This document shows, one piece after another, positions 5,792 to 34,486 of a DNA stretch of 64,000 nt. The stretch is from an uncultured Candidatus Saccharibacteria bacterium (GTDB lineage Bacteria > Patescibacteriota > Minisyncoccia > Phycocordibacterales > Zambryskibacteraceae): positions 18,823 through 82,822 of the forward strand of contig CAZFAS010000001.1 in assembly GCA_964516975.1 (NCBI GenBank), read 5' to 3'. The notes below the pieces were generated by a model. The model saw nothing but the letters and a program-made list of their open reading frames with translations. It did no database searches and had not been told where the DNA came from. Made by a program: the position numbers and the translations under genes. Every line of letters starts with the position of its first letter. Within the stretch, counting starts at the first letter, position 1.

Positions 5792-6079
5792 ATGGCAAAG
5801 GGAAAGGGTGGGAAAGAGAGCAAAGAACGGGAGCATGCACCAAGTGTTCCGCAACTGCCCGCAGTGTTCCGTGATGTGGAAAGGAAGATGAATACCAGCT
5901 GGGCGTCTCGAATAGCAACTGGTGAGTTCAACATCGAGAATCTTCATGGGGATGATCCCTCTGAGGGATTAGAAACCCAAGATTTCGACGATTTGAGCTT
6001 GCAAGAGCTGTCGGGATTCCAGGTATTCCCAACCATGAACCACTTCAAGCGAAGCCTCATGAGTAAGAGGAATCGCTAG
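5792..6079 (+). CDS. hypothetical small acidic protein (GC-richer than surroundings)
   Basis: RBS AGGAGAAGG precedes the ATG at 5792 (the track ORF begins at 5741). A hairpin terminator follows. No recognisable domain. Confidence 0.35.
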   Translation: MAKGKGGKESKEREHAPSVPQLPAVFRDVERKMNTSWASRIATGEFNIENLHGDDPSEGLETQDFDDLSLQELSGFQVFPTMNHFKRSLMSKRNR

Positions 6080-6225: not shown

Positions 6226-6891
6226 ATGAACATAAAGGCGGTTTTGCAACTCCTACCGTGTGTTGCTATCTTGGCTTCGTGTGGAAACACGACTAAGGTA
6301 TACATCACGAATCCGTCGTACCCGCCAGAGCAACAAGGAAGTTATAGACTCAGAATTGCACCACATCAGTTTGTTGGTGAGATGGGCGATAAGATTCAGA
6401 TCATTATCGATCGGTCAGTGCCGGTCGGTGTTTCTGACTCTGTTATCTTCCGAACGAGTTCATCAAGCACAGTAAGTGTGTCCGCAAATGGTATCGTGTC
6501 ACTTAATTCGCCAGGTTTGGCGAGAGTGTATGCGAAGCTGTTCGCCGATAGTGCGTATGTTGATACACTTGTTGTTACTGTGAACAATCGTACAGCACTT
6601 ACGATTAAGTTCGGAGCAGACTCAGTTCGTGTTCAAGTTGGCAAGAGCTACGATATTCCGGTTCAAGTCAAAGGAAAGGCAGGAGTCACTACTGACTTCA
6701 CCTGTGCTTCCTTGGATGTTTCGGTAGTACGTGCTAATGCCGTGCTTACAGACGGGGTCTGCAGGGTTACACCGGTTGTGGTGAATCCGAAAGGTTCGAA
6801 TTCACCCGTAATTGTCACTGCAACTACGGTTGCAGTCGATGCTGTTACTGGTCGTATGACAACCGGTACTCGTGTATACGTTGATCCATAG
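6226..6891 (+). CDS. lipoprotein with Ig-like (Big_2-type) beta domains
   Basis: Lipobox signal peptide (MNIKAVLQLLPCVAILASCG). The rest is beta-rich with a V/T repeat pattern. It is moderately GC-rich. A bidirectional terminator follows. Confidence 0.5.
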   Translation: MNIKAVLQLLPCVAILASCGNTTKVYITNPSYPPEQQGSYRLRIAPHQFVGEMGDKIQIIIDRSVPVGVSDSVIFRTSSSSTVSVSANGIVSLNSPGLARVYAKLFADSAYVDTLVVTVNNRTALTIKFGADSVRVQVGKSYDIPVQVKGKAGVTTDFTCASLDVSVVRANAVLTDGVCRVTPVVVNPKGSNSPVIVTATTVAVDAVTGRMTTGTRVYVDP

Positions 6892-9109: not shown

Positions 9110-9508
9110 ATGAAAGGATATAAACAAAATATTGAATCAGTTGTGCGTGAAAATTCTGATTTCCGAAGAGTTTTATATACAAGCAAGTTTAGCCAGTTAG
9201 TTGCTATGAGTCTTTTGCCATTAGAGGAAATTGGTTTAGAGGTTCATGAAACAAATGATCAGTTTTTTCGATTTGAGAGCGGAGTTGGCAAAGTAATTAT
9301 CAATGAAAACGAATATGATGTTGCTGATGGGGATGCAGTTATAGTACCCGCAGGAAGTAAACACAATGTGATAAATACATCTACTGATCAAAGTCTTAAG
9401 TTATATACTATATATTCTCCTGCACACCATAAAGATGGGATTGTTCGTGCAACAAAACATGAAGCTGAACAGGATGGCCCAGAATTTGATGGAGTGACAA
9501 CAGAATAG
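9110..9508 (+). CDS. cupin-fold small protein
   Basis: GDAVIVPAGSKHNVINTS is a cupin motif-2-like strand. 132 aa, beta-rich. Confidence 0.6.
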   Translation: MKGYKQNIESVVRENSDFRRVLYTSKFSQLVAMSLLPLEEIGLEVHETNDQFFRFESGVGKVIINENEYDVADGDAVIVPAGSKHNVINTSTDQSLKLYTIYSPAHHKDGIVRATKHEAEQDGPEFDGVTTE

Positions 9509-9509
9509 T

Positions 9510-10475
9510 ATGAAAAAAAAATCCAAAGGATATACAACACTAACGCTAGTACTTGTGAGTGCATTTGTTATTGCTATAGGAGTTTTCTTTTATATGAGAT
9601 CCGGTAATTCAGAAAACGCTCTTCTTAAAAAACAGGCGGATTTGAAAGCTCAACTTGCAAATGCAAAGTCAAAGCTTGGAAATGAGAAAGATAAGTTAAA
9701 TGATGCAGAAAAGGCTTTTCGTGTAGCATTTCCATTTTATGACTTTGTAGATGATCAGCTTGTTGCAATGAATCAGGCAGTAAATAGAACTGATGTACTT
9801 TTTCAAAATCCACTGACAGAAAATCCAGTATTAAAAATAAAGACAAGTAATCCAGAAGTACAAAAGAATATTGAAGATAAGAGAACGATAATAAATGAGA
9901 TTCTTCAGGATTGGAGAAGTAGGGTTGATGTAACACTTGCTGGGAAAATAGATAAGGCAACACTTGATCAATTAAAAAAGGATTCGCTCACTATAGAGTC
10001 GTATGTAAATGATTTAAATGCATATGTTGATTCACTTACTCCTGCAAACTCCGGACTCTCACAGTCTCAGATTCAAAGTTATCAGCAAATGATTGACTCT
10101 GTTATTCAGGAAATTAAAGATGCGATTAATTCCATAGATACAACTGGTAGTACTCTTCAGAATCCTGATCCAAGTGCTCAGCAAAATGTTCAATCCCCAA
10201 CAACTCAACAAACAGTAGTGAATAATGCTCAAGCAGAGGTTACTTTTATTGAGCAACAACTAGCTAATGTTGAAGCTCAAATAGATGCAAGTAATCAAAA
10301 TGATCCACAGTCACAAAATCAAACTCCAGTAGATCAAACTCAGCCCACAGTAGGGGACCAAAGCACTGACAATTCAAATGCAACAGATACTGGGACAACA
10401 ATCTTTTTCCCAACACAACCAATCAATGTAACCCCAGGCGCCCCTCGACTTATACAGGGTACAAATAAGGACTAG
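9510..10475 (+). CDS. membrane-anchored coiled-coil, Gln-rich protein (hypothetical)
   Basis: Its start overlaps the cupin stop by 1 nt. The N-terminus is a hydrophobic anchor that is pilin-like but lacks E5. It continues with a long helical KQADLKAQLANAKSKL... region and a Q/T/N-rich low-complexity tail. Confidence 0.5.
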   Translation: MKKKSKGYTTLTLVLVSAFVIAIGVFFYMRSGNSENALLKKQADLKAQLANAKSKLGNEKDKLNDAEKAFRVAFPFYDFVDDQLVAMNQAVNRTDVLFQNPLTENPVLKIKTSNPEVQKNIEDKRTIINEILQDWRSRVDVTLAGKIDKATLDQLKKDSLTIESYVNDLNAYVDSLTPANSGLSQSQIQSYQQMIDSVIQEIKDAINSIDTTGSTLQNPDPSAQQNVQSPTTQQTVVNNAQAEVTFIEQQLANVEAQIDASNQNDPQSQNQTPVDQTQPTVGDQSTDNSNATDTGTTIFFPTQPINVTPGAPRLIQGTNKD

Positions 10476-10529
10476 TATAATACTAAGATAGTATTGACAA
10501 ATACATTAAATTATGTATAATTTTTTATT

Positions 10530-11438
10530 ATGCAAATAATTAGATCAGCTGCCTTTTCTGTGCAAATAGGGGCACCAGAAACAATACTTAATTTTCAGGA
10601 ATATAGCCAATTTAAATATGGGCATAAGCCTACCATTTTGAAATTTGCTAAAAAAATGGTTGATGGGTTGTTTGCGATTATGCCAATTTCTAAATTAATA
10701 AAAAATAATCAGGATATAGTGATTATCACATCTCCATTCTGGCATACCCCACCGTCAGTATATCCACTTGCACTTGAGGTACATAAATTAATTAATGAGA
10801 AGCTTTTGGATAATAAAGCAAATGCAATTAAGTTCGTTAAGATTAGCCGCTCATCTGCACCATCTTGTGATTTTAGTAAGTTAACCGTTGAAGAAAGAAA
10901 ACTTAATATGCAAAGGAATAAGCTTTCTATTGATGAAGATTCTGTGAGAGATAAGACTGTTATTTTTATTGAAGATGCGAGAATTACAGGCGCGCATGAA
11001 GAAAAAACCATTGTCTGTTTAGAACAGGCGGGGGCAAAAAAGGTCATTTTGCTTTACCTTATTGATGTTAAAAATGGAAAAAATGACCCTGATATTGAAA
11101 ATAGATTAAACCATGCCGTGATTAATTCAATTGATGAATTGTATAAATTAATGAGAAAACCTGATGAATATGTTTTAAACAGCCGTTCTGTTCGTTTTGT
11201 CTTATCTTGGGCTGATCATAAGGAACTTAAAAAGTTTTTTGCAAAAATTTCCTCGGTTATTTTAGATGAACTATACAGTGCGTCTATTACCGATGGGTAT
11301 GGACTTATGGAGAAATATGCGCAAGGATTCGAATTGTTACGTGCAGAGGTCAAAAGTAGAAACAAACAACAACTTGTACCTAGTCTCATAAATAAGGCAA
11401 ATGCTTTTATCAAGAAAGCATACGTCTTAACATTCTAG
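10530..11438 (+). CDS. phosphoribosyltransferase (PRTase)-fold protein, paralog A
   Basis: Degenerate PRPP-binding loop KTVIFIEDARITGAHE. It shares motifs with the ORF at 12140 (QEYSQFKYGHKP vs QAYSKFKYGD; DARITGAHEEK vs DIRITGTGERK; YGLMEKYAQGFELL vs YSVLSKYGQSYGLL). Confidence 0.5.
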   Translation: MQIIRSAAFSVQIGAPETILNFQEYSQFKYGHKPTILKFAKKMVDGLFAIMPISKLIKNNQDIVIITSPFWHTPPSVYPLALEVHKLINEKLLDNKANAIKFVKISRSSAPSCDFSKLTVEERKLNMQRNKLSIDEDSVRDKTVIFIEDARITGAHEEKTIVCLEQAGAKKVILLYLIDVKNGKNDPDIENRLNHAVINSIDELYKLMRKPDEYVLNSRSVRFVLSWADHKELKKFFAKISSVILDELYSASITDGYGLMEKYAQGFELLRAEVKSRNKQQLVPSLINKANAFIKKAYVLTF

Positions 11439-11442
11439 TTAT

Positions 11443-12135
11443 ATGAATACAATCACATGTGTTTGTTTTGATGTCTGGAACACGATTTTACAAAGTAATC
11501 CAGATTTCAAAAAACAAAGAATTCAAATTATTGCAGAGGCGTTTTCTTCTGAACCGTCTATAATTGCAAAAATTGCAAATGAAATCGATATCGAATTCGA
11601 TAAGATTACTGATCTCACTGGTCGGGATTTTAATTGTGCCGATAGATTAAAATTGATTGCTTCGAAACTTAAAAAGGATTCGTATTGTAATGAAGAGTTT
11701 TTGAAACAATTGGAGGATAATATCGATCAAGCTTTTTTGCGATTTCTACCTTCTCTCAAAAGTGATGATGTGATCATTGCGCTTGAACAACTTAAACAGA
11801 AGAACGTGACTATTTGTTTGTTGAGTAATACGGGTTTTATTAGTGGGGTATACATGAGAAAAGCACTTGGTCTGCTTGGAGTTATGAAATTTGTTGATTA
11901 TTCATTTTTTTCAGATGAAATCAAAATTGCAAAGCCAAACCCAGAAATATTTGCTTTTGTGACTCGTACAATGGGTTGCATGCCATATAACGTGTTGCAT
12001 GTTGGAGATAATGTTCTAGCTGATTATGAAGGAGCCATAAAATTTGGTATGAACGCTTTGCTTCTGAATACAAAAGAGACCATTTCAAACAGCGCAACTA
12101 TACATTCACTATCTGAGCTTCTTGTAAAAATATAA
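11443..12135 (+). CDS. HAD-superfamily hydrolase
   Basis: Motif I-like CFDVWNTIL, motif II LLSNTG, and motif III/IV K...GDNVLADYEGAIKFGMNALLL. The second motif-I Asp is replaced (DVWNT). Confidence 0.65.
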   Translation: MNTITCVCFDVWNTILQSNPDFKKQRIQIIAEAFSSEPSIIAKIANEIDIEFDKITDLTGRDFNCADRLKLIASKLKKDSYCNEEFLKQLEDNIDQAFLRFLPSLKSDDVIIALEQLKQKNVTICLLSNTGFISGVYMRKALGLLGVMKFVDYSFFSDEIKIAKPNPEIFAFVTRTMGCMPYNVLHVGDNVLADYEGAIKFGMNALLLNTKETISNSATIHSLSELLVKI

Positions 12136-12139
12136 AATT

Positions 12140-13012
12140 ATGAACAGTCTAAAACAAAGTATATTGGCTTTATCTACTCTGCACATTGAACAAGGCACGG
12201 TTTATGATGAAGAAGGTAATGTGTTTGATGCGCAGGCGTATAGTAAGTTTAAGTATGGTGACGCAAGGGAGGCGGAGCGTTATGGTATTAAACTTGCACA
12301 AGAGTTTATTAAACAAAATCAAGATATTTTTTTAGGTGAAGACCATGAAACAAATTTTATAATTGCCGAGCATCCTCGTAAGTATATTCTCAAGGGAGCA
12401 AATGTTATTTCTCGACATTTTCAAAACTATTTGAATTTATATCTGGTATCAAACGGAAAGAACCCAATTATGTCAGTCCCTATATTTATGAGCTCTGTTT
12501 TTGAAGGGGATTACGGAACCTTTGATAAGGTAATTCGGGACAAGGTTATGAGTAAACAACAGTTTTTTACATCAACAGAATTATTTCAAAATAAACACAT
12601 CATATTAGTGGATGATATCCGGATTACAGGAACAGGGGAAAGGAAGATCGCATCATTTTTAGAAGAGTTGAATCCTGAGAGTGTTCACTTCTTGTATGTT
12701 GCAAAATTAAATCAAAACCAAGCAGATAGTAATCCAGAAATTGAAAGTCTGATTAACCATGTTTGGATGAATGATCCAGAAAGACTTATAGAAATCATGA
12801 ATACAGACTATTTTGCACTAAACGCACGGGTTGCAAAACATGTACTTACTCTTAATGGTCAAACACTTGTTCAATTTCTTTCAAAAATAACAGACACGCG
12901 TATTAAAGAATTATATTTTGCAGTTATCTCTGATGGTTACTCAGTTTTGTCAAAATATGGTCAATCTTATGGTCTATTGGAATATGAGTTTAATAAACGT
13001 TTTCGGAATTAA
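12140..13012 (+). CDS. phosphoribosyltransferase (PRTase)-fold protein, paralog B
   Basis: Good type-I PRTase PRPP loop KHIILVDDIRITGTGE. Paralog of the ORF at 10530..11438. Confidence 0.55.
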   Translation: MNSLKQSILALSTLHIEQGTVYDEEGNVFDAQAYSKFKYGDAREAERYGIKLAQEFIKQNQDIFLGEDHETNFIIAEHPRKYILKGANVISRHFQNYLNLYLVSNGKNPIMSVPIFMSSVFEGDYGTFDKVIRDKVMSKQQFFTSTELFQNKHIILVDDIRITGTGERKIASFLEELNPESVHFLYVAKLNQNQADSNPEIESLINHVWMNDPERLIEIMNTDYFALNARVAKHVLTLNGQTLVQFLSKITDTRIKELYFAVISDGYSVLSKYGQSYGLLEYEFNKRFRN

Positions 13013-13037: not shown

Positions 13038-13065
13038 TTGACAAATCCTTATAATCTGCTATAAT
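13038..13065 (+). promoter_or_regulatory. sigma-70-like promoter (TTGACA, 16-nt spacer, TATAAT) at the low-GC/high-GC boundary upstream of terC
   Basis: Exact consensus hexamers at 13038-13043 and 13060-13065. An ~85-nt leader with a hairpin (acgcgtgtctca...tgagcacgcgt) precedes the terC ATG. Confidence 0.5.
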
Positions 13066-13156
13066 ACCGCTAGATTTACTGATGGAACCTTGAATGCCGC
13101 GTGTCTCATTTTGAGCACGCGTATGTGGGAAAACAACAACTCCTGGGAGGAACCCG

Positions 13157-14038
13157 ATGGACGCTGTTCATGGCCTCATCACGAACTTCATGACTCATCT
13201 GCCCTCGGCGGCGGAGCTCATGAGTGCAGTGCCAGTGATTCTGTCATTGGTGTTGATCGAGGGCTTGCTCTCGGTAGATAATGCCATGGCGATTGCCGCC
13301 ATGGCTTCGGTGTTACCGAAGAACAAGCAGAAGCTCGCACTTCGGCTGGGTATCATCGGAGCGTACGCGTTTCGCGGTATTTCGCTGGGGTTCGTCGCGT
13401 TCATCGCGGAGAACCACTGGCTGAAGTTCGCTGGTGCCTGCTATCTGGTGTACCTCATGTGCCATGGGCTTCTCATTGAGGAGTCTGAAGACGAGGGTAG
13501 TCATGGGACTGTGGTGCAGAAGTCGATGTTGGTCACGATCATACAGATCGAGATCATGGATCTCTCGCTTTCGCTTGATAATGTTGTCGCTGCAGTAGCG
13601 ATGGACAAGCGATTGTGGGTGGTGTGCACGGGTGTCTTCATCGGCATCTTAGCCTTGCGGTTCATCGCGGGCTACTGCATTCGACTCATCGAAAGGTTCC
13701 CGATCTTGAAAAAGACGGCGTTCCTCTTGATTGGGTTCGTCGGCGCAATCTTGGCCTTCGAGCTCACGATGGACATGGTAAATAACCATGTCGAAGTCAC
13801 GAGCTTCGAGAAGTTCCTCGGCATCATCACGATCACTACGATGTCTCTGCTCTACGGCCACACGGTCGCGGGACGCAAGTGGCTTGGCCCGGTTGTCACG
13901 ATCGGGATGCCGGCTGTCGTCGTTCTGAACAAGGTGTTGTCATATGCTTTGTTGCCGTTTGAGATGGTCTTTGTGGGTCTCAAGAAGACCTACAAGTTCA
14001 TCACTGGCGGCGACAAACCCCACACGCACGTCGCGTAG
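13157..14038 (+). CDS. terC: TerC-family integral membrane protein
   Basis: Duplicated TerC signature (EGLLSVDNAMAIAAMAS and DLSLSLDNVVAAVAM), about 7 TM helices, RBS GGGAGG. GC-rich codon usage. Confidence 0.8.
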   Translation: MDAVHGLITNFMTHLPSAAELMSAVPVILSLVLIEGLLSVDNAMAIAAMASVLPKNKQKLALRLGIIGAYAFRGISLGFVAFIAENHWLKFAGACYLVYLMCHGLLIEESEDEGSHGTVVQKSMLVTIIQIEIMDLSLSLDNVVAAVAMDKRLWVVCTGVFIGILALRFIAGYCIRLIERFPILKKTAFLLIGFVGAILAFELTMDMVNNHVEVTSFEKFLGIITITTMSLLYGHTVAGRKWLGPVVTIGMPAVVVLNKVLSYALLPFEMVFVGLKKTYKFITGGDKPHTHVA

Positions 14039-14191
14039 TAGACGAATGGAAGCGTAAGCTTCCCGGAATACTCTGGGTGAGTCCGTTAAGCTCACCCTCT
14101 TTAACGAGAATCTGATCGAATGATCGGAACCTCGTAGAGAGCAATGGTGCTTTCTATGTTCGTTGAAAACTTCAACCATAGGTAAATCGAC

Positions 14192-15385
14192 ATGGGCAAG
14201 CCAACTGTGTTTGGCCTGACCTCGGTGCGGCCGGTACTTGACGCAAGTCAAGCAAACCTGCCAGTGCCAGTGAGTCAGATCGACACTGGCGCTATCGTGC
14301 TCAAGGAAGCTCAGCTTCCCGATGCCGAACAGCGCCTTGCGAAACTCGACTTCCGGTCGATTTCGCAAGCTGAGATCGTCACGATCGGTCTTCCGGAGGA
14401 ACAGCACCTTTCCACAACTCTCGATGGTTTCATGGCTCGTCTTAACAGGACTGATGCCAAGGAAACATTCGAACTCTTCACGCAAGTGAAGAAGGGAGTG
14501 GAAGATGCGAAACTTCCGGAGATAATCGAGAAGATTCAGAGTCCTGTGGAGCCTGGTATGTTTGCCAAGTTCACAGGTATGTTTCGCGGGAAGTCCGCGT
14601 CACAACTCAAAGACGAGTTGTTCAAGTCGATCAGTGACATGATTACTGGTCGCACAAAGACACTCGCCGATCTTCTCGCCAAGATGGAAGGGGAGATCAA
14701 GAGTAAACTCGCAGGTCTCCTTTCCGAACTTCAAGTGCAACAGCGCTTGAAGGAAAGCTACCTGATTCACTTTGGTGAATTCACGGTAGCTGCGGCGGTT
14801 GCGCGGGCCTTCCTTGAGAAGGCTCGTGCGGACGTTGCAGAAGAAGAAGCGACACTCGCTGCAAATCCGACGGATTCCGTGCAGCAAGCACGAGTCCAGG
14901 AGTTGCAGTCGAAGTTGGTTTTGCTCGAATCAAGGGCGCTTGCGCTCGAAGGGACGTACACTCGTTTGCCTGCAGACGCGCTGGTCATCCAGCAGTTGCA
15001 GCAAGCAGGTGTGAGTACGGTTCAGGAAGTTGCTACCACAATGAACCAGCGATTGTCATCCATCAAGATGACATTGTTGGCCATCAACGGCACGTTTCAA
15101 ATTCAAGGTGTGCAGATGCTCGCAGAGCGTTCTGCCACCATGGATCAGCAGTTGCTCGATGCACGCGGTCAGCTTTTGAAGCAGGTCGCGGGTACCGCAG
15201 CAGCTGCGCCCGGCAACAACCGCTTGGCTCAGGCCAAGCAGATCGAATCGGTTATCGCGCAGGTGCGTGAAGTCGATGAGATTGTCACCAAGGCACGTGA
15301 AGAATCAACCCAGAGGATGGCGGAGGCACGGACAAGTTTCGCTGCCGCCCGTCAGGAGCTCGCACGACTCGGCTCAGGCAACTGA
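14192..15385 (+). CDS. telA: TelA-family (toxic anion resistance) all-alpha protein
   Basis: Length and motif order match TelA: MFAKFTGMFRGKSASQL, then IDxI.....L-type helices, YLIHFGEFTVAAAVARAFLE, LESRALALEGTYTRLPADALVIQQLQQ. GC-rich. Confidence 0.6.
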   Translation: MGKPTVFGLTSVRPVLDASQANLPVPVSQIDTGAIVLKEAQLPDAEQRLAKLDFRSISQAEIVTIGLPEEQHLSTTLDGFMARLNRTDAKETFELFTQVKKGVEDAKLPEIIEKIQSPVEPGMFAKFTGMFRGKSASQLKDELFKSISDMITGRTKTLADLLAKMEGEIKSKLAGLLSELQVQQRLKESYLIHFGEFTVAAAVARAFLEKARADVAEEEATLAANPTDSVQQARVQELQSKLVLLESRALALEGTYTRLPADALVIQQLQQAGVSTVQEVATTMNQRLSSIKMTLLAINGTFQIQGVQMLAERSATMDQQLLDARGQLLKQVAGTAAAAPGNNRLAQAKQIESVIAQVREVDEIVTKAREESTQRMAEARTSFAAARQELARLGSGN

Positions 15386-15444
15386 TCGAGTGTTGTAGAA
15401 GTTTCCCTGTAGTTTATCGAAGTTCACTCAACTGGAGAATTCAC

Positions 15445-16056
15445 ATGGCGCTCAACCTGCCCCTTTCGAAGCCTGGCGACACTCATGTTCCGCTGAAGCT
15501 CAACCTTGCAAAGGGTGAACGCTTCACGGTCGAGCTCGCCTGGGACTCCAAGCACGACTTGGACGCGCACTGCCTCCTCATGGAGGATACGGGCGCGGGC
15601 AACAAGGTCACCTCGATGGAGAAAGTGCTTAGCACGTATAACAGCAGGAAGACCAACCGCAGTGGTGTGCTCGTGACGAACCCGAACGGTTCGTTCAGCA
15701 CGCCGTGCGGTTCGCTCACTCACTCGGGTGATGCTCGCGACGGTACCCTCACGGGTGTCGACGAGACCATCACTATCGAGGGGTCGAAAGTCCCCATGAA
15801 CATCGTCGAGATTCCGATCTTCGTCACGATTCATCCCGCATCGAGCGGGTTGTTCAAGGACGTGAAGGAAGCGACGATCAAGATCAAGGACGACAGCGGC
15901 AAGGAGCTTTGCTCTTTCCGTCTCACGTCCGAGTTCGCCAGCTTCAATGCTGTGCAGATGGGCTCGCTTCTGGTCGGCGCTAACGGCTGGGAGTTCTCAG
16001 CGGTCGGTGTCGGCTTCAACGGCGATTTCAACTCAGTCCTCGGGTCCTTTTCCTGA
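15445..16056 (+). CDS. terD: TerD-domain protein (tellurium-resistance TerD/TerE/TerZ family)
   Basis: Strong colinear match to TerD: LAKGERFTV, ELAWDS, DLDAHCLLM, LTHSGDARDGTLTGVDETITIEGSKVP...VEIPIFVTIH (Ca-binding GDN-type loop), WEFSAVGVGFNG. RBS GGAGAA. Confidence 0.85.
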   Translation: MALNLPLSKPGDTHVPLKLNLAKGERFTVELAWDSKHDLDAHCLLMEDTGAGNKVTSMEKVLSTYNSRKTNRSGVLVTNPNGSFSTPCGSLTHSGDARDGTLTGVDETITIEGSKVPMNIVEIPIFVTIHPASSGLFKDVKEATIKIKDDSGKELCSFRLTSEFASFNAVQMGSLLVGANGWEFSAVGVGFNGDFNSVLGSFS

Positions 16057-16068
16057 TACGGAGGCTAG

Positions 16069-17190
16069 ATGATGCCGGAGGAGAATTCAAACCTCTCCTC
16101 CGGCATCACGCCCGAGGAGAGGAAAGGGCCAACAGTCATTAAGACTGGAGGCCAAGAACGGAAACCGACTGTTATGGGAGGAGGGCAAACACCCACCTCC
16201 GTAACGCCGGCAGCACACAAACCAACGGTTATTACGGTCGGTGAACAACCTATCGAAAAACCTGAGGCGAAGGTAGTAAAGGCGAGTGTGATAGTTCCGC
16301 CAGTGGTAACAACGGTGAAAACCAATGTACTACATGGTGGCTCTCAACCTACGACGATGATCGGTTCGAAACGGAAGCGGCTTGCCGTGACGTTTGCAGA
16401 ACTTGAATCAAAGAATGTAGGGACAGAACATGAAGTGCTCAACGCTGCACTTGATCTTATCTTGATCACAAATCTTGATGAGTTAAGTGATAGAGATGTC
16501 GTGATGTGGGGGCATGAACTCCAACATCGCTTCGCAGGGCATGTCACTGAATGTCTCACACTCAGTCAGTCGGAGGATCTCAAAAACACGAGTCGTAACT
16601 TGTCTCGCATGTTGGAGATTCTTGAGTCAATCGATCTTCAAGCGGTATTCGTACCGCAAGGGGGTATTCTTTCTCGCTTCATGGCGAGATCGAACAAAAA
16701 GATTGACACCATCGAGGAACTTAAATTGGCTTGCGAAGAGATTCAACAGCTGATCGTGTTGCTCGATAAACGTCTCGATGGACTGCTGACACTCAAAGGA
16801 GATCTCGACACAGTGTCGAGAAAGATTGAGAGTGTTGGTAAGGAAATTGAGATGTCGATGATTGCAGCGTTGTATCTTGCAGATTATTTGTCACAAGGAG
16901 CTGATGCGAACCCTGTTCTCTCGCAACGCTTTGCGGAGCGAGGAATGAGTTTGACTCAGTCACTTGTACAAATTCGTACGAGCAGCTCGATGAGAGATAT
17001 TCAAATCGAGCAACCCCTTGCCATGATTGGAAGGGTGCAGGACGTAGCACTCGTTTTGGTTCCTGGTTTGATCGGGACAATCACATCTCTCAAGATGATG
17101 ACCGAACAAAATCAGAAACCAACAGTGACGACCGTCACTGAACTCGCAGACCAACTTGGACATATCGTCCAAAAACTCGGAGGTAGGTAG
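16069..17190 (+). CDS. TelA-like helical protein with an N-terminal Pro/Thr-rich KPTV tandem repeat
   Basis: Residues 20-75 carry three copies of an [RK]KPTV[IM]xxG(G)xQ motif. The remainder resembles the central TelA region (GGILSRFMARSNKKIDTIEEL...LLDKRLDGLLTLKGDLD...MIAALYLADYL). Confidence 0.4.
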   Translation: MMPEENSNLSSGITPEERKGPTVIKTGGQERKPTVMGGGQTPTSVTPAAHKPTVITVGEQPIEKPEAKVVKASVIVPPVVTTVKTNVLHGGSQPTTMIGSKRKRLAVTFAELESKNVGTEHEVLNAALDLILITNLDELSDRDVVMWGHELQHRFAGHVTECLTLSQSEDLKNTSRNLSRMLEILESIDLQAVFVPQGGILSRFMARSNKKIDTIEELKLACEEIQQLIVLLDKRLDGLLTLKGDLDTVSRKIESVGKEIEMSMIAALYLADYLSQGADANPVLSQRFAERGMSLTQSLVQIRTSSSMRDIQIEQPLAMIGRVQDVALVLVPGLIGTITSLKMMTEQNQKPTVTTVTELADQLGHIVQKLGGR

Positions 17191-17952
17191 ATGGCGCTCA
17201 GCCTCGATCTCAACAAGGCAGCTGCAAAGCTGTCGCTCGACCTCACCAAGAAGGGGGTCGACATGACCCAGATCTCTGCGGAGGTATCCTTCTGTCTTGA
17301 CGTTTCCGGTAGCTATCAGGACGAGCAGGAAGATGGTTCTACGCAGAAGTTACTCGAGCGGCTCGTGCCGTGGAGCATGGTGCTCGATCCGGACAAGCAG
17401 ATGGACGTGTTCACCTTCAGCAATGGTGAGGAAAACGCTCACCACGCTGGCATGATCACCCCGCAGACCGTCGACGGATTCATTCGCCGTAGTGTCATTG
17501 GCCGGGTTCCCGGATACGGCGGTGGTACGGACTACTCGTACGTGCTCGAGAAGAACCTTCGTCACTTCGGATGGTTGCCCAAGGCTTCGTCCGAGGCTCC
17601 CAAGAAGGGGATGTTCGGAGGACTGTTCGGTGGATCGAAGCCTGCATCGCAGGTGGCGGTCGCCAAGCGTCGCTCGTTGGTGATTTTCAACACCGACGGC
17701 GAAAACAACGACAAGTCACGAGTGACGCGCGTACTCGAGGAGTCCGAGCGTCGCAGCGATCTGGTGTACTTCCTCTTCATCGCGTATGCGAATGGAGGGG
17801 GCAAGTTCCCGTTCCTGCAGGAGATCGGCGATCGTTTCAGCAACACCGGGCTCGTGGTCATCAACGACATCAATCGTTGGTGTGCCCAGCCCGATGACGT
17901 GATCAACGAGCAGCTCATTGGCGAAGAACTCGTCGCATGGTTGAAGAAGTAA
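17191..17952 (+). CDS. von Willebrand factor A (vWA) domain protein, Ter-associated type (TerY / TerF-C-like)
   Basis: MIDAS DxSGS (CLDVSGSY) and a second metal-site segment LVIFNTDGENND. The ATG overlaps the previous stop, so the two genes are translationally coupled. Confidence 0.65.
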   Translation: MALSLDLNKAAAKLSLDLTKKGVDMTQISAEVSFCLDVSGSYQDEQEDGSTQKLLERLVPWSMVLDPDKQMDVFTFSNGEENAHHAGMITPQTVDGFIRRSVIGRVPGYGGGTDYSYVLEKNLRHFGWLPKASSEAPKKGMFGGLFGGSKPASQVAVAKRRSLVIFNTDGENNDKSRVTRVLEESERRSDLVYFLFIAYANGGGKFPFLQEIGDRFSNTGLVVINDINRWCAQPDDVINEQLIGEELVAWLKK

Positions 17953-17992
17953 AGCTCTTTCGATAGAGTGACCTTCGGGTTACTCTATCAAA

Positions 17993-18021
17993 GCGGCGCA
18001 CGTAAGTGTGCCGCTTTTTTT
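17993..18021 (+). terminator. rho-independent terminator closing the Ter island (preceded by a second hairpin at about 17962-17990)
   Basis: gcggcgcacgtaagtgtgccgc followed by TTTTTTT. Confidence 0.65.
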
Positions 18022-18143
18022 GACTTGGAAAGAAAAGTCTGGTATGTTTTTTTGAGTTCTTTACATCGAGAGATTGATAACCCTGCTCGGCACAGGTTTA
18101 TCACAGTGTCATTTGCCGAAACCCGCATGGAGCGTAACCGTAC

Positions 18144-18803
18144 ATGAGATGCTACACTTTCGCTGGTGGGGAATTCAAGCCTGGTATTGATGTAATTCAA
18201 GACCAGGGCACACATGCAATCCTTCTCGGTGACAAAATCGCTGAGCGAGGAGAGCGACTTCTTCTTCACCTTGATCAGGTGAATCTTCCCGAACTGAAGG
18301 ATGGAATGGTACATGAAGCTTCTCTCACTGAGAGATTTTTCATGGGAACCAACCACACTGTCATTTCAGGATCACCGTCATCTGAAAAGGGTGTCATTAT
18401 TCGTGCCAATGCAAGCACGAATGCAAAGTCGCGTGTTGCATGTCGAAGTGGTATCTTCCTGAAAAAAGGAGATCAAAAGGCCTCAATCCCGACAGAAATT
18501 GCTTCAGGACTTGTTCCTCATTTTTCTGAAGATGAGGAATTCATTGGCTTCGCTGTCGATGGTGTCTTTCAGCTTTTGGAGGGTACCCATCTTGTGGTAA
18601 GGCCATTTGGTGTCAAACATGATGACTATGAAAAGCAGATTGTCATCGTGTGTAGGATTGAGGATGGAATCGCTATCGCGAAGAAGTATTCATTTGCTAA
18701 GTTTCGCGAGTCTGTAAGGAAGTCGACTCCGATTACTGTGGTGGATGATCACAGGAATCATCCTCTTCGTATGACTAGGCTCCAAGCAACTTCTGTGCAC
18801 TAA
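18144..18803 (+). CDS. hypothetical protein (intermediate GC)
   Basis: 219-aa ORF with no recognised motif. A strong terminator follows. Confidence 0.4.
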   Translation: MRCYTFAGGEFKPGIDVIQDQGTHAILLGDKIAERGERLLLHLDQVNLPELKDGMVHEASLTERFFMGTNHTVISGSPSSEKGVIIRANASTNAKSRVACRSGIFLKKGDQKASIPTEIASGLVPHFSEDEEFIGFAVDGVFQLLEGTHLVVRPFGVKHDDYEKQIVIVCRIEDGIAIAKKYSFAKFRESVRKSTPITVVDDHRNHPLRMTRLQATSVH

Positions 18804-18813
18804 TCTCTCGAAA

Positions 18814-18852
18814 CGCCCCGTCCCGCAAAACTGCGGGACGGGGCTTATTTTT
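18814..18852 (+). terminator. rho-independent terminator (cgccccgtcccgc / gcgggacggggc)
   Basis: 12-bp GC stem followed by TTATTTTT. Confidence 0.7.
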
Positions 18853-21884: not shown

Positions 21885-22292
21885 ATGCGCATTTTTTTGA
21901 TGGTTCTGGTCTTTCTCGGAAGTTTTTCACTTTCGGGGTGCATCGAAGTTAACAAGTACTACCCAACTGAACCGGTAGAGGCAAAGCTGGTCCTGCCGGC
22001 TTTCGATCCGGCGACAATCGTACTTTCAACAACGACTAGCGTAGAGTACTTGCAGGCAATCACGGTTGTTCCGCCTACGGGCGTGAACGTATGTGATGAC
22101 GTGATGTGGACCATTGTTGGTTCATCGATTCAGGAATCGGCAAGAATTTGTGAGAGATACCCAGATGGGAGCACTCGGATCGCGACTTCATTCCATACTC
22201 GTGCCCCGGGTGAGTCGAGAATTACCCTCACTCCCAAAAGCAATCCGAAGGGTGCAACTACCCTCCGGATCATCGTCAACGAAAAGGGATAA
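21885..22292 (+). CDS. small lipoprotein (hypothetical)
   Basis: Signal peptide plus lipobox LSGC. 135 aa, GC about 50%. A hairpin terminator follows. Confidence 0.45.
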   Translation: MRIFLMVLVFLGSFSLSGCIEVNKYYPTEPVEAKLVLPAFDPATIVLSTTTSVEYLQAITVVPPTGVNVCDDVMWTIVGSSIQESARICERYPDGSTRIATSFHTRAPGESRITLTPKSNPKGATTLRIIVNEKG

Positions 22293-33484: not shown

Positions 33485-34486
33485 GTGTTACGTATGAAAT
33501 TTCCAGTAATTATTCGACAGAGTCCTCTTGTACTTATACAAAGAATAATTGGAGTTGATTTTGTATTCTCTTTCTTTCTATTTTTTGTTTCTTTTTTGAC
33601 AAACTATCAGGCTTTGTATCAGGAGACACTCGGACATCTTTTTAAGCGATATGATATTTTCCTTTTCTTGTTCGCGTCTGTAAGTCAGCTCGCTATCACG
33701 CTCATTGTTTTCTTTTTTTGGCAAAATGAAGAATATAGAATTAAGGAAAAAGAATTACTTTTTCGTGGCGGATTTTTTTCAAGCAAAGAGCATTCAATAC
33801 TATTAAAGAATGTTACTGCAGTTGAATACAAGAAAAGCCTACTTGAGATGTTGCTTTCATATGGAACTATAGTCGTGCACTATGTTGGGTCTGCAAAGCC
33901 TTTTTATATTAGAAGTGTAGAAACTGCCGAAATTTACGCAAATATTATTAAAGATGCAGTAGATCGGTCACTTTCACGAAAACCCGAAGAAAGTAAAAAG
34001 ATGCCAATATTGGATTTAGTTCTTGAAGGGGAGAGTTCAAAACTAGAGCTCAAACAGACCTTTCGTTGGGATGTAAAGCTTAAAGATACCAATAAGGCAC
34101 TTGAAAAAGCTGTTATAAAAACGGTCGCCGCTTTTCTCAATTCTGATGGAGGAAACTTAATTATTGGTGTCGATGATAGTGGAAGTATTTACGGTCTTGA
34201 GGATGACTATAATTCACTTGTGAGAAAAGATAGGGATGGATTTGAAAATCATTTCAATCAAGTGATTAAAAATATGATAGGGGCAGAATTCCGAAGGTAC
34301 ATAGATTTGAGTTTTGAGAAAATTGAGGATAAGGATGTCTGTCTTGTGAGTGTTTCGCCATCTCCTAAGCCTGTATATGTAACTGTAAATGGTGATGAAG
34401 AATTCTTTATTCGTACGGGTAATACTACAAGTCCTCTAAAAGTAAGTGAAGTGAATTCTTATATTGAAACTCGTTGGCAAAAATAG
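33485..34486 (+). CDS. membrane-anchored protein: two TM helices, a bacterial PH (bPH_2/YdbT-like) domain and a C-terminal AlbA_2/Schlafen-type DNA-binding domain
   Basis: Two N-terminal hydrophobic helices, then FRGGFFSSKEHSILLKNVTAVEYKKSLLEMLLSYGTIVVHYVG (bPH_2-like). The C-terminus reads LEGESSKLELKQTF...AVIKTVAAFLNSDGGNLIIGVDDSGSIYGLE (AlbA_2 signature). Confidence 0.55.
   Translation: MLRMKFPVIIRQSPLVLIQRIIGVDFVFSFFLFFVSFLTNYQALYQETLGHLFKRYDIFLFLFASVSQLAITLIVFFFWQNEEYRIKEKELLFRGGFFSSKEHSILLKNVTAVEYKKSLLEMLLSYGTIVVHYVGSAKPFYIRSVETAEIYANIIKDAVDRSLSRKPEESKKMPILDLVLEGESSKLELKQTFRWDVKLKDTNKALEKAVIKTVAAFLNSDGGNLIIGVDDSGSIYGLEDDYNSLVRKDRDGFENHFNQVIKNMIGAEFRRYIDLSFEKIEDKDVCLVSVSPSPKPVYVTVNGDEEFFIRTGNTTSPLKVSEVNSYIETRWQK

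Follow-up and report, generated by a model that had tools for sequence, protein, structure and literature searches.

A putative Ter-type stress-response system of two adjacent operons, one of them GC-rich, in a Patescibacteria genome

Organisation of the locus

The window analysed here is a 64,000-nucleotide stretch of a metagenomic contig, to which all coordinates refer. Its host is a Patescibacteria (CPR) bacterium, whose LeuRS shares 62-66% identity with proteins of Nomurabacteria, Parcubacteria and Paceibacterota. Two operons follow each other on the forward strand, the first encoding phosphoribosyltransferases (PRTases) and a HAD-family phosphatase, the second consisting of five co-directional open reading frames:

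10494..10521, forward strand: perfect sigma-70-type promoter (TTGACA, 16 nt, TATAAT) heading the PRTase/HAD operon
10530..11438, forward strand: PRTase_3 a, a ComF-like phosphoribosyltransferase (Pfam PF15610, 1.3e-33; GC3 0.28)
11443..12135, forward strand: HAD-family phosphatase (Pfam PF00702, 1.5e-16; GC3 0.27)
12140..13012, forward strand: PRTase_3 b (Pfam PF15610, 4.4e-44; GC3 0.27)
13038..13065, forward strand: perfect (12/12) sigma-70-type promoter with extended TG, of the TerC-to-vWA operon; kept in loci L011 and L015
13157..14038, forward strand: TerC-family membrane protein, YkoY/MeeY subfamily (Pfam PF03741, 7.5e-44; GC3 0.75)
14049..14178, forward strand: conserved structured RNA leader with hairpins P0-P4, between TerC and g2, from intergenic conservation and a covariance model
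14192..15385, forward strand: g2, a divergent TelA-like helical protein of 397 aa (distant TelA homology; GC3 0.60)
15445..16056, forward strand: TerD-domain protein of 203 aa (Pfam PF02342, 2.5e-24 over the full length; GC3 0.79)
16069..17190, forward strand: g4, a second, distantly TelA-like protein of 373 aa (Pfam TelA, 1.2e-4; GC3 0.48)
16070..16108, forward strand: perfect 15-bp hairpin at the g4 start, conserved in L011 and L015 (z -4.0, -3.3 and -5.0)
17191..17952, forward strand: vWA-TerF-like protein with MIDAS motif (Pfam PF10138, 9.2e-16; GC3 0.75)
17962..18021, forward strand: double hairpin/terminator, a 12-bp stem with UUCG loop followed by a 12-bp stem and T-run

The upstream operon

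The first promoter ends 9 nt upstream of the ATG and the mRNA would therefore be nearly leaderless. The HAD phosphatase also matches HAD-IA and nucleotidase-like models in NCBIfam. In Ter systems PRTases and HAD enzymes constitute a 'signal synthesis' module whose product is thought to be a nucleoside-like signal (PMC7824862). Orthologues of PRTase_3 a adjoin Ter genes in six other loci (L011, L015, L019, L020, L025 and L165), in L011, L019 and L165 a single gene combines the HAD with the second PRTase, and in L163 a HAD gene and a single PRTase_3 gene are linked to Ter genes. In both L011 and L015 the PRTase_3-HAD-PRTase_3 genes (10530-13012) accompany the GC-rich half, and their divergence parallels that of the Ter genes. 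A preliminary description had delimited a five-gene island beginning with TerC; this is too narrow, because the low-GC genes form part of this known kind of Ter system and travel with it. The functional unit is the GC-rich genes plus the upstream low-GC operon.

The GC-rich operon

The second promoter lies where the preliminary description had placed it, but its reading as a native element that betrays domestication does not hold. The TTGACAAAT...TATAAT promoter occurs at the same site in L011 and L015 and is therefore part of the cluster.

TerC scores 178 bits against the YkoY subfamily model TIGR03716 (cut-off 138.5). No yybP-ykoY riboswitch (RF00080) was found upstream of it between 12900 and 13300, either at the Rfam gathering score or at E<=10, and its 5'UTR folds with a z of -1.1. 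The TerD-domain protein matches 2KXT (8.4e-13) and 3IBZ (3.4e-9) in the PDB; it is no textbook representative, however, since its Ca2+ loop is degenerate, reading GDARDGTLTGVDE in the window against GDNRTGEGDGDDE in 2KXT. The vWA protein, whose start directly abuts the g4 stop, scores 59 bits against PF10138 (gathering score 29.4) and carries the DxSxS signature of a MIDAS site as D37-V-S39-G-S41, as had been claimed. The double terminator is likewise where it had been put: the first hairpin spans 17962-17989 (by eye), and an intrinsic terminator hairpin at 17990-18017 precedes the T-run.

Profile searches thus recover TerC, TerD and vWA-TerF-like domains above threshold, whereas the two proteins originally listed as TelA family members appear TelA-like by distant or transitive homology only, both falling under the Pfam threshold. 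In g4, TelA (PF05816) reaches 21.7 bits where the gathering score is 30, and six of 18 g4 orthologues match the family. Window g2 has no Pfam match, TelA included, and only one of its 20 orthologues matches TelA (5.4e-9). A link is provided by protein P0489, which matches the g2 profile at E 9e-21 and scores 43 bits against TelA, above the gathering score; hhalign aligns g2 with g4 at 93% probability (E 3.5e-7). An AF2 model of g2 (pLDDT 70.7) consists of three helices of roughly 55-95 residues and gave no significant fold match in the PDB. The repeats described in g4 as KPTV are present as PTVIG repeats, the PTV(I/M) motif occurring three times within the first 60 residues and once close to the C-terminus; g2 bears a KPTVFG motif at its N-terminus.

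Comparison with known Ter systems

Ter-dependent stress-response systems were defined by Anantharaman, Iyer and Aravind (2012) and summarised by Iyer et al. (2021); they combine PRTase/HAD 'signal synthesis', TerD/TerB sensors, TerC, and TelA and TerF-vWA sub-membrane components (PMC7824862). The locus resembles them in uniting PRTases, a HAD phosphoesterase, TerD, TerC, TelA-like proteins and a TerF-type vWA protein in one neighbourhood. It differs in its CPR host, its single TerD paralogue, TelA-like proteins under the Pfam threshold, a two-toned composition, an RNA leader within the operon, and the absence of TerB, ATP-grasp and TerY-kinase/phosphatase parts; for TerB, neither Pfam nor NCBIfam gave a match among the ORFs of 4.6-21.8 kb. 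A Ter system need not always contain TerB.

The ter operons confer resistance to tellurite, phage and colicins (PMC8193136). The enterobacterial terZABCDEF/terWXY cluster of the IncHI2 plasmid R478 and of prophage-like elements shares with the window TerC, TerD, a TerF/TerY-type vWA protein and a mobile, island-like character. In contrast, it has four to five TerD paralogues (TerZ/A/D/E/F) and TerB but no TelA, as opposed to one TerD and no TerB here; the window TerC is of the YkoY subfamily, and its TerD scores only 52 bits relative to the Klebsiella protein (2KXT), from which it also departs in the Ca2+ loop.

A further counterpart is provided by quartets on the plasmids Agrobacterium pAtK224c and Sphingobium pSYA3-1 and in Novosphingobium pentaromativorans, in which g2, TerD, g4 and vWA follow each other exactly as in the window, with identities of 52-53% for g2, about 50% for vWA, about 46% for TerD and 34-37% for g4. 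These quartets have a GC3 of 0.70-0.81 and PTV(I) motifs in g4, and both TelA-like genes are annotated as hypothetical proteins only. They lack adjacent TerC or PRTase/HAD genes and adjoin P-type ATPase, CDF and CorA metal transporters instead; the covariance model of the RNA leader found no instance in them at E<=1.

With respect to TerC, the family members MeeF and MeeY supply exported Mn enzymes with their metal, and Bacillus subtilis MeeY (YkoY) acts in Mn2+ export (PMC10550928). The window protein matches the YkoY subfamily model, but its gene is the first of a TerD/TelA/vWA operon and lacks the yybP-ykoY Mn2+ riboswitch that controls MeeY.

Distribution and relatives

The Ter module is common among Patescibacteria, and the description of the locus as uncommon for a reduced genome has to be abandoned: candidate-phyla names are attached to 13 of the 23 TerD-bearing genome loci, with three low-GC bins in addition. 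The core quartet occurs in many phyla as well as on the Agrobacterium, Sphingobium and Novosphingobium plasmids. Two diverged relatives are L011 (TerD 76% identical to the window copy), with its fused HAD and second PRTase, and L015 (72%), in which no separate HAD was detected; both share the cluster of seven to eight genes in different neighbourhoods. Outside this clade the nearest g2 relatives are proteobacterial (50-56%), most other CPR copies reaching 31-45%. No donor stands out: the best outside identities peak at 50-62%, and the per-gene neighbour-joining trees disagree with one another.

Nothing in the surroundings points to the site of an insertion: the neighbouring genes contain no integrase or transposase Pfam domains, no direct repeats flank the block, and the only tRNA lies at 35.5 kb, away from its edges. 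PADLOC 2.0 reported no defence-system match, only weak similarity of the PRTases to ShosT (9e-5 to 5e-4).

Base composition and contiguity

The abrupt switch from AT-rich to GC-rich DNA noted at the outset is borne out by windowed GC, by GC3 and by oligonucleotide signatures. In 500-nt windows, GC is 0.31-0.38 in the left flank (8.5-13.0 kb), 0.51-0.58 across 13.0-18.0 kb apart from a trough of 0.46-0.48 at 16.25-17.2 kb, and 0.36-0.45 beyond 18.0 kb. The genes of the block have a GC3 of 0.48-0.79 against 0.21-0.34 in housekeeping genes, while GC1 and GC2 rise only slightly. The dinucleotide distance delta* between block and genome is 122, compared with 40 +/- 14 (maximum 70) in size-matched controls (n=36 segments), and the tetranucleotide correlation is -0.04 compared with 0.94. 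The GC-rich half is compositionally foreign to its genome.

This break is the sole point in favour of an assembly or binning chimera in which the block stems from another organism. In assemblies from JGI, Logan and ENA, ten conspecific contigs match the window at 99.6-100% identity, and all ten contain the cluster; four (L001, L002, L004 and L006) span the left junction and nine (all but L004) the right one. Because these independently assembled metagenome contigs cover both junctions, the block is not a chimera, and the loci L011-L014 and L015 display the same junction architecture; we regard the probability of an artefact as negligible.

Origin of the GC-rich half

Horizontal acquisition had been proposed on account of the composition. 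A foreign origin is plausible, because the module is scattered over phyla and occurs on conjugative alphaproteobacterial plasmids, and its nearest g2 outside the clade is proteobacterial; a simple or recent event is not supported. Recent transfer of five genes from a high-GC donor, placed behind a native low-GC promoter and still unameliorated, would account for the sharp GC3 step at each end and the foreign dinucleotide and tetranucleotide signatures, and in other phyla the module is indeed a mobile one. Yet the L011 and L015 clusters share the step, the promoter and the per-gene GC3 values, although four-fold sites are near saturation between the window, L011 and L015 lineages (0.33-0.51 observed versus 0.25-0.32 expected). 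Furthermore, counts of GC>AT and AT>GC changes fit the stationarity expectation in a parsimony test that is weak at saturation, PRTase and Ter genes co-diverge, and no close GC-rich donor was found (best TerD <=62%, g2 <=56%). We consider a recent transfer improbable. Since promoter and GC3 profile match in diverged relatives with near-saturated synonymous sites, the acquisition must be old, and the block appears to have been kept GC-rich.

The conserved profile could also be read as a gene-specific equilibrium, upheld by codon or mRNA selection or by biased gene conversion, for which no transfer is needed. Among the Ter genes, TerD, vWA and TerC nearly always lead in GC3 and g4 comes last, with PRTase and HAD below g4 in most loci that have them; of 14 CPR-type loci with GC3 determined gene by gene, 12 follow this ranking, the GC of their hosts spanning 0.39-0.65, and the exceptions are L020 and, in part, L025. 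G-ending NNR codons make up 0.84-1.0, above the proteobacterial orthologues. Between the window and L015, delta* is as low for block versus block (39) as for host versus host (37), compared with 123-147 for block versus host, and the profile has persisted despite near-saturated synonymous sites. Against such an equilibrium, the GC3 offset of 0.45 far exceeds codon bias of the kind normally linked to expression, ClpB, FKBP and MetK-type genes do not rise above baseline GC3, and the orthologues in Cytophagales and in one 'Rickettsiales' MAG are fully host-like at a GC3 of about 0.40; the stationarity test, moreover, loses power at saturation. An equilibrium that makes transfer superfluous as an explanation is unlikely, if less so than a recent transfer. 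Most probably the GC-rich half came from a GC-rich source, either a GC-rich CPR bacterium or a quartet of the kind found on proteobacterial plasmids, at a time before the window lineage parted from L011 and L015, and would have retained its GC3-rich codon usage ever since.

A Ter-type system and its possible mode of action

The reading we favour, and hold to be somewhat more likely than not, is that of a chromosomal, TerD-centred Ter-type stress-response system of two adjacent operons in a Patescibacteria bacterium, with an anciently acquired GC-rich half. By analogy with described systems, the low-GC operon (10.5-13.0 kb) may produce a nucleoside-like signal by means of its two ComF-like phosphoribosyltransferases and HAD phosphatase. 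The second operon (13.04-18.02 kb) would supply a YkoY/MeeY-type TerC as membrane metal transporter, beside which the TelA-like, TerD and vWA proteins are predicted to gather at the membrane. This assembly might react to envelope, metal or phage stress, its candidate inputs being the product of the PRTase and HAD enzymes as well as divalent cations, namely Ca2+ on TerD, Mn2+/Ca2+ via TerC and metal at the MIDAS site. Each operon has a consensus promoter of its own, with the RNA leader ahead of g2 and the start-codon hairpin, coupling g4 to TerD, as putative further layers of control.

RNA elements

The leader of about 130 nt stops 13 nt short of the g2 ATG. Its covariance model has 26 instances in 19 Ter loci (E 1e-5 to 1e-33), at a fixed position 5' of g2, g4 or TerD. 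Pairing is retained at 90% compared with 74% in shuffles, none of 500 shuffles scoring as high, with double changes at 19 of 27 pairs, and the single-sequence fold has a z of -4.05. A search against Rfam 15 gave no match at the gathering score, the best being a partial hairpin match to an SRP model (E 0.22); judged from sequence comparison, this covarying RNA of Ter loci is apparently an undescribed element.

It may well act between cistrons in RNA processing or stability, or as a site at which one of the operon's own proteins binds in autoregulation, and not as a ligand switch; we rate this a strong contender, though a little short of even. Up to two copies occur per operon, invariably intercistronic (after TerC, TerD and, once, g2), the minimum free energy folds are plain tandem hairpins, and a proposed loop-linker pseudoknot is not above chance. 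Switching, on the other hand, is suggested by the segment GUAGAGA, which can pair with CUCU upstream or UCUCUAC downstream in two mutually exclusive helices, both with compensatory changes, and by the CU-rich 3' arm of P3, which in the window and L011 complements the downstream Shine-Dalgarno sequence (by eye only), an arrangement typical of translational switches.

More speculatively, the RNA could represent a new riboswitch class for the PRTase/HAD product or a divalent cation, with the GC3 of TerC, TerD and vWA actively maintained in AT-rich CPR genomes across saturating divergence; we entertain this combination as a tentative, rather doubtful possibility. If true, such a riboswitch would for the first time give direct access to the small-molecule signal that has long been postulated for Ter systems, and the maintained GC3 would reflect a gene-specific compositional equilibrium and not the scar of an unameliorated transfer.

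The hairpin at the g4 start sits 12 nt downstream of the TerD stop. It begins one base past the first AUG of a tandem pair (the called start, 16069) and encloses the second (16072-16074), and its CCUCC arm is complementary to nearby GGAGG sequences. The hairpin would probably make translation of g4 depend on that of TerD.

Two operons form one Ter unit

Ter systems are widespread and are tied to metal, envelope and phage stress; their mechanism is debated. The GC-rich block of the window encodes a protein system of this known kind. A preliminary description had taken it for a horizontally acquired island of five genes, an observation that is confirmed here and an interpretation that is supported in part. 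The genes and signals of the region are the following:

10494-10521 (+), second perfect 12/12 promoter, ending 9 nt upstream of the first PRTase start codon (ATG)
10530-13012, operon 1 (low GC): PRTase_3, HAD phosphatase, PRTase_3
13038-13065 (+), sigma-70 promoter, 12/12, extended TG, of the TerC operon
13157-17952, operon 2 (GC-rich): TerC, g2, TerD, g4, vWA
14049-14178 (+), structured RNA leader of ~130 nt directly 5' of g2, from a covariance model
14192-14215 (in g2) and 16069-16250 (in g4), PTV(I/M)G motif regions, with orthologues in loci L011-L040
16070-16108 (+), perfect 15-bp hairpin at the g4 start, 12 nt past the TerD stop
17962-18021 (+), double hairpin and T-run after operon 2

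The promoter at 13038-13065 and the double hairpin terminator are both present where they had been placed. The idea that this is a native promoter pointing to domestication did not stand: the TTGACAAAT...TATAAT promoter upstream of TerC is kept in the window and in its closest relatives by TerD, the loci L011 (GCA_964627145.1; 76%) and L015 (a MAG labelled Saccharibacteria; 72%), and is therefore part of the cluster rather than a native host promoter capturing an insert. Both relatives carry essentially the same cluster, in the order PRTase-(HAD)-PRTase-TerC-g2-TerD-g4-vWA; in L011 the HAD and the second PRTase are fused, and in L015 no HAD was detected. The three clusters lie in wholly different genomic surroundings, and in rough NJ trees window, L011 and L015 group as one clade in each of the seven gene families examined, PRTases included. 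The functional unit extends beyond the GC-rich block and takes in the low-GC PRTase-HAD-PRTase genes directly upstream, which have their own promoter and co-occur with the Ter genes in L011 and L015; a five-gene island is accordingly too narrow a view. The promoter of these genes lies only 9 nt from the PRTase ATG, which implies a nearly leaderless mRNA.

Three neighbours were considered as members and rejected, a cupin (9110-9508), a 321-aa protein (9510-10475) and a 219-aa protein (18144-18803), since their homologues adjoin Ter genes in no other locus. The 219-aa ORF, on the (+) strand just past the terminator, has an intermediate GC3 (0.40), no family match and a strong terminator of its own (18815-18844).

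The five proteins of the GC-rich operon

The first and last genes were identified correctly in the preliminary description. TerC (PF03741, 7.5e-44 in Pfam) belongs to the YkoY/MeeY subfamily (TIGR03716, 178 bits at a cut-off of 138.5), and the last gene encodes a TerF-type vWA protein (PF10138, 9e-16) that has the DxSxS MIDAS motif and is without a sequence relative in the PDB. The supposedly textbook TerD does have a solid TerD domain (PF02342, 2.5e-24 in Pfam), but its subfamily is divergent: its score against Klebsiella TerD (2KXT) reaches only 52 bits, and the canonical acidic GDNRTGEGDGDDE of the Ca2+ loop has become GDARDGTLTGVDE. The 5' ends of the TerD and vWA genes (15445-15458 and 17191-17204) share 14 nearly identical nucleotides, ATGGCGCTCA[A/G]CCT, reading MALNL and MALSL, a similarity that may echo the TerD-vWA fusion in TerF.

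The assignment of g2 and g4 to TelA is less direct. The g4 protein matches PF05816 at 1.2e-4 and 21.7 bits, under the gathering score of 30, and the window copy of g2 is without any Pfam match. Kinship of both to TelA does hold by transitive sequence evidence: one g2 orthologue matches TelA at 5.4e-9, 6 of 18 g4 orthologues match it weakly, and comparison of the g2 profile with that of g4 gives a match of 93% probability. Searching the full database with the g2 profile HMM recovers a compact family of 186 representatives, one of which, P0489, matches the profile at E 9e-21 and is itself a genuine Pfam TelA (43 bits). In an AlphaFold model (pLDDT 70.7), g2 folds into three long bundled helices, each roughly 55-95 residues; a fold search of this model against the PDB gave only generic coiled-coil matches (best E 0.09, none significant), and the g2 and g4 profiles found nothing under E 0.19 among PDB sequences. 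The KPTV repeats reported for g4 are real. They correspond to a PTV(I/M)G peptide motif that occurs in 2-6 copies in the N-terminal region of g4 orthologues from several phyla (L011-L040), often with a single PTV(I)G copy at the g2 N-terminus, and that may, to judge from the sequences, be a docking motif.

The hairpin at 16070-16108 starts one base past the first of two tandem AUGs and encloses the second. It is kept in L011 and L015 (z -3.3 to -5.0) and probably couples translation of g4 to that of TerD.

Composition and origin of the GC-rich block

The abrupt compositional switch is evident by every measure applied. GC in 500-nt windows goes from 0.31-0.38 at 8.5-13.0 kb to 0.51-0.58 at 13.0-18.0 kb, dips to 0.46-0.48 in g4 and returns to 0.36-0.45 downstream of the block. 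GC3 amounts to 0.75 in TerC, 0.60 in g2, 0.79 in TerD, 0.48 in g4 and 0.75 in vWA, compared with 0.21-0.34 in the window's housekeeping genes; the offset resides nearly entirely in third codon positions, GC1 and GC2 being raised only a little. Island and genome differ by a dinucleotide delta* of 122 (size-matched control segments, n=36: 40 +/- 14, maximum 70), and the tetranucleotide correlation with the genome is -0.04 (controls 0.94). A chimeric contig, the misassembly that had been a concern, is ruled out because both junctions are bridged by independently assembled contigs: ten contigs from JGI, Logan and ENA samples match the window at 99.6-100% identity, and the left junction is crossed by four of these and the right by nine. 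One conspecific contig, L005, departs from the window past its position 5844 (window 20393), after the FKBP gene, and has a glycosyltransferase where the window has TGT, which is either strain variation or local misassembly.

A compositional island is in itself ordinary. A foreign origin is favoured here by the composition, by the patchy, phylum-mixing distribution and plasmid carriage of the genes, and by g2, whose nearest relatives outside the clade are proteobacterial (50-56%; Devosia, Pleomorphomonas, Agrobacterium plasmids), most other CPR copies having 31-45% identity. For the proposed acquisition from a high-GC donor, a foreign origin is plausible and a recent date is not. A GC-rich Uhrbacteria cluster with TerC (L024) has 51% (g2) and 57% (TerC) identity to the window and the nearest dinucleotide signature among outside sequences; on these similarities, a GC-rich CPR cluster of this type would be a donor-type candidate as close as Proteobacteria. 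NJ trees by gene are discordant, g2 grouping with alphaproteobacterial plasmids and TerD and TerC not, and the naming of one donor was dropped because of these conflicts and the low identities.

The transfer is not recent, since the same step and GC3 profile recur in L011 and L015 and four-fold sites are near the composition expectation. The flanks in L015 have GC3 0.19-0.34 and the island 0.51-0.77, the step in L011 is likewise abrupt, and across the three loci GC3 is 0.72-0.75 for TerC, 0.59-0.63 for g2, 0.74-0.79 for TerD, 0.48-0.55 for g4 and 0.72-0.75 for vWA. Identity at four-fold sites of conserved residues is 0.33-0.51, where composition alone would give 0.25-0.32. By parsimony, GC>AT and AT>GC changes number 187 and 108 in the Ter genes, and 37 and 73 in the PRTase genes; both ratios are near the p/(1-p) expectation of stationarity. 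Our reading of these comparisons is that the acquisition would be old and the GC3-rich codon usage unusually persistent since, possibly maintained; selection, biased conversion or slow amelioration may be the cause.

A similar ranking is found elsewhere. In most other CPR-type loci (host GC 0.39-0.65) TerD, vWA and TerC have the top GC3, g4 is lowest among the Ter genes, and PRTase/HAD genes, in most loci having them, are lower still (L019, L021, L022, L024, L161-L165); exceptions are L020, where g2 is highest, and in part L025. The Cytophagales and "Rickettsiales" copies have fully host-like GC3. G-ending NNR codons in TerC, TerD and vWA reach 0.84-1.0, exceeding GC-rich proteobacterial orthologues. 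No classic highly expressed genes, sought for a comparison with expression-linked codon bias, are present among the relatives' flanking genes. The PRTase/HAD genes of L011 (2204-4664) have GC3 0.34-0.36, under the flanking genes of that host (0.37-0.59), so that both cluster halves deviate from the host, in opposite directions. Two-tone composition across synonymous-saturated lineages cautions against equating every GC step with recent transfer, and may exemplify gene-specific codon usage that is being maintained.

A structured RNA leader

Between TerC and g2 lies a 153-nt spacer that is conserved among window, L011 and L015 far above synonymous sites. It contains the leader RNA, copies of which include:

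L011, 5673-5799
L015, 7642-7771
L019, 8502-8663 and 10639-10804

A covariance model built from five sequences recovers the window element and 25 more instances in 18 other Ter loci (26 in 19; E 1e-5 to 1e-33), and as an independent check the element was found in 5 of 5 loci fetched after the model was built. All 26 instances are intercistronic and on the coding strand: 17 immediately precede g2, six precede g4, with a further one at a contig end, and two precede TerD. Paired cells make up 90% (74% in shuffles, none of 500 reaching the observed value), both sides have changed in 19 of 27 base pairs and slid controls are 39-51% paired, figures that carry some bias toward the structure because the alignment was fitted to the model. 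Single-sequence folds give z -2.5 to -4.05.

The GUAGAGA segment has alternative partners, an upstream CUCU (closing P2) or a downstream UCUCUAC (P3), and the CU-rich 3' arm of P3 is, by eye, complementary to the g2 Shine-Dalgarno region. These mutually exclusive helices suggest a switch, and we infer the layout of a translational one. Rfam 15 holds no family for the leader and literature searches for a Ter-linked RNA motif found no description; it is apparently undescribed so far. The covariance model did not find it in proteobacterial and Bacteroidota quartets (g2-TerD-g4-vWA).

A pseudoknot between the P1 loop (UCCG) and an upstream CGGA was no better than shuffled loops. A metagenome scan with the pattern AGTCCGTNAAKCTNRCCC gave 120 loci, none with Ter genes; the covariance model found only five weak matches in 100 of them, and the loci are chance matches to the pattern. 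As for a riboswitch 5' of TerC, there was no Rfam match and the fold of the 5'UTR was not significant.

Host and distribution

The window is chromosomal (class II aaRS, ClpB, Dus, UvrABC, Ddl, PGI, YchF, LeuRS). Its LeuRS is nearest, at 62-66%, to proteins named Nomurabacteria, Parcubacteria, Paceibacterota, Minisyncoccia and Patescibacteria, identifying the host as a CPR/Patescibacteria bacterium. The cluster had been thought uncommon for a reduced genome. On the contrary, 13 of the 23 genome loci recovered with a TerD profile bear candidate-phyla names (Saccharibacteria, Nomura-, Uhr-, Morani-, Adler- and Kaiserbacteria) and three more are low-GC bins with a CPR-type cluster, the remainder being Acidovorax, Rhodoferax, Gemmatimonadaceae, Verrucomicrobium and Cytophagales-type genomes and a "Rickettsiales" MAG. 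Literature searches for Ter in CPR found nothing relevant. The core g2-TerD-g4-vWA is also present on alphaproteobacterial plasmids (Agrobacterium, Sphingobium, Novosphingobium; some conjugative), where it adjoins genes for metal transporters (P-type ATPase, CDF, CorA) and the TelA-like pair is annotated as hypothetical only. An unverified contig from human faeces (L040; MT836679.1, "Bacteriophage sp.") has a quartet with the same identities and the GC3 of Agrobacterium pAtK224c; it is probably plasmid or contaminant DNA, not phage.

Proposed mechanism

Three features rise above the ordinary: the cluster-intrinsic, lineage-persistent two-tone composition, the prevalence in CPR, and the apparently undescribed leader RNA. 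CPR bacteria, with their very small genomes, commonly retain a Ter system, which argues for a basic role in the episymbiotic lifestyle. We know of no identification of the proposed nucleoside-like Ter signal; a conserved RNA adjoining the supposed signal-making enzymes is a concrete, testable entry that could make this long-postulated signal approachable.

The protein families, from which all steps are drawn, suggest how the system might work. TerD and TerB have been described as sensors, TerC as the membrane component, TelA and TerF-vWA as sub-membrane components, and PRTase/HAD enzymes as a proposed "nucleoside-like signal" synthesis module (PMC7824862). TerC would move Mn2+ or Ca2+ across the membrane in the manner of MeeY, a TerC protein involved in exoenzyme metalation (PMC10550928). 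TerD would bind divalent cations, the two TelA-like helical proteins and the MIDAS vWA protein would form a sub-membrane assembly, perhaps docked by the PTVIG motifs, and the PRTase/HAD operon would produce a small-molecule signal. The output may be tolerance to envelope, metal or oxidative stress, or to phage; enterobacterial ter operons confer tellurite, phage and colicin resistance (PMC8193136). PADLOC recognised no defence system.

Other observations

A giant ORF at 39385-55959 (+) encodes 5524 aa (25% Gly, rich in Ala, Thr and Ser; GC2 0.66, GC3 0.17) and accounts for the plateau of GC 0.49 and GC-skew 0.35-0.45 at 42-51 kb. Its N-terminus carries a TM or signal segment and its C-terminal part an FN3-like region in which there are two dockerin-like repeats; a GLUG motif is also present. 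Two small genes for predicted lipoproteins (6226-6891 and 21885-22292, (+)), neither of a Pfam family, are moderately elevated in GC3 (0.42 and 0.54), and the gene at 33485-34486 (+) combines a bacterial PH domain and a Schlafen/AlbA_2 domain in one protein.
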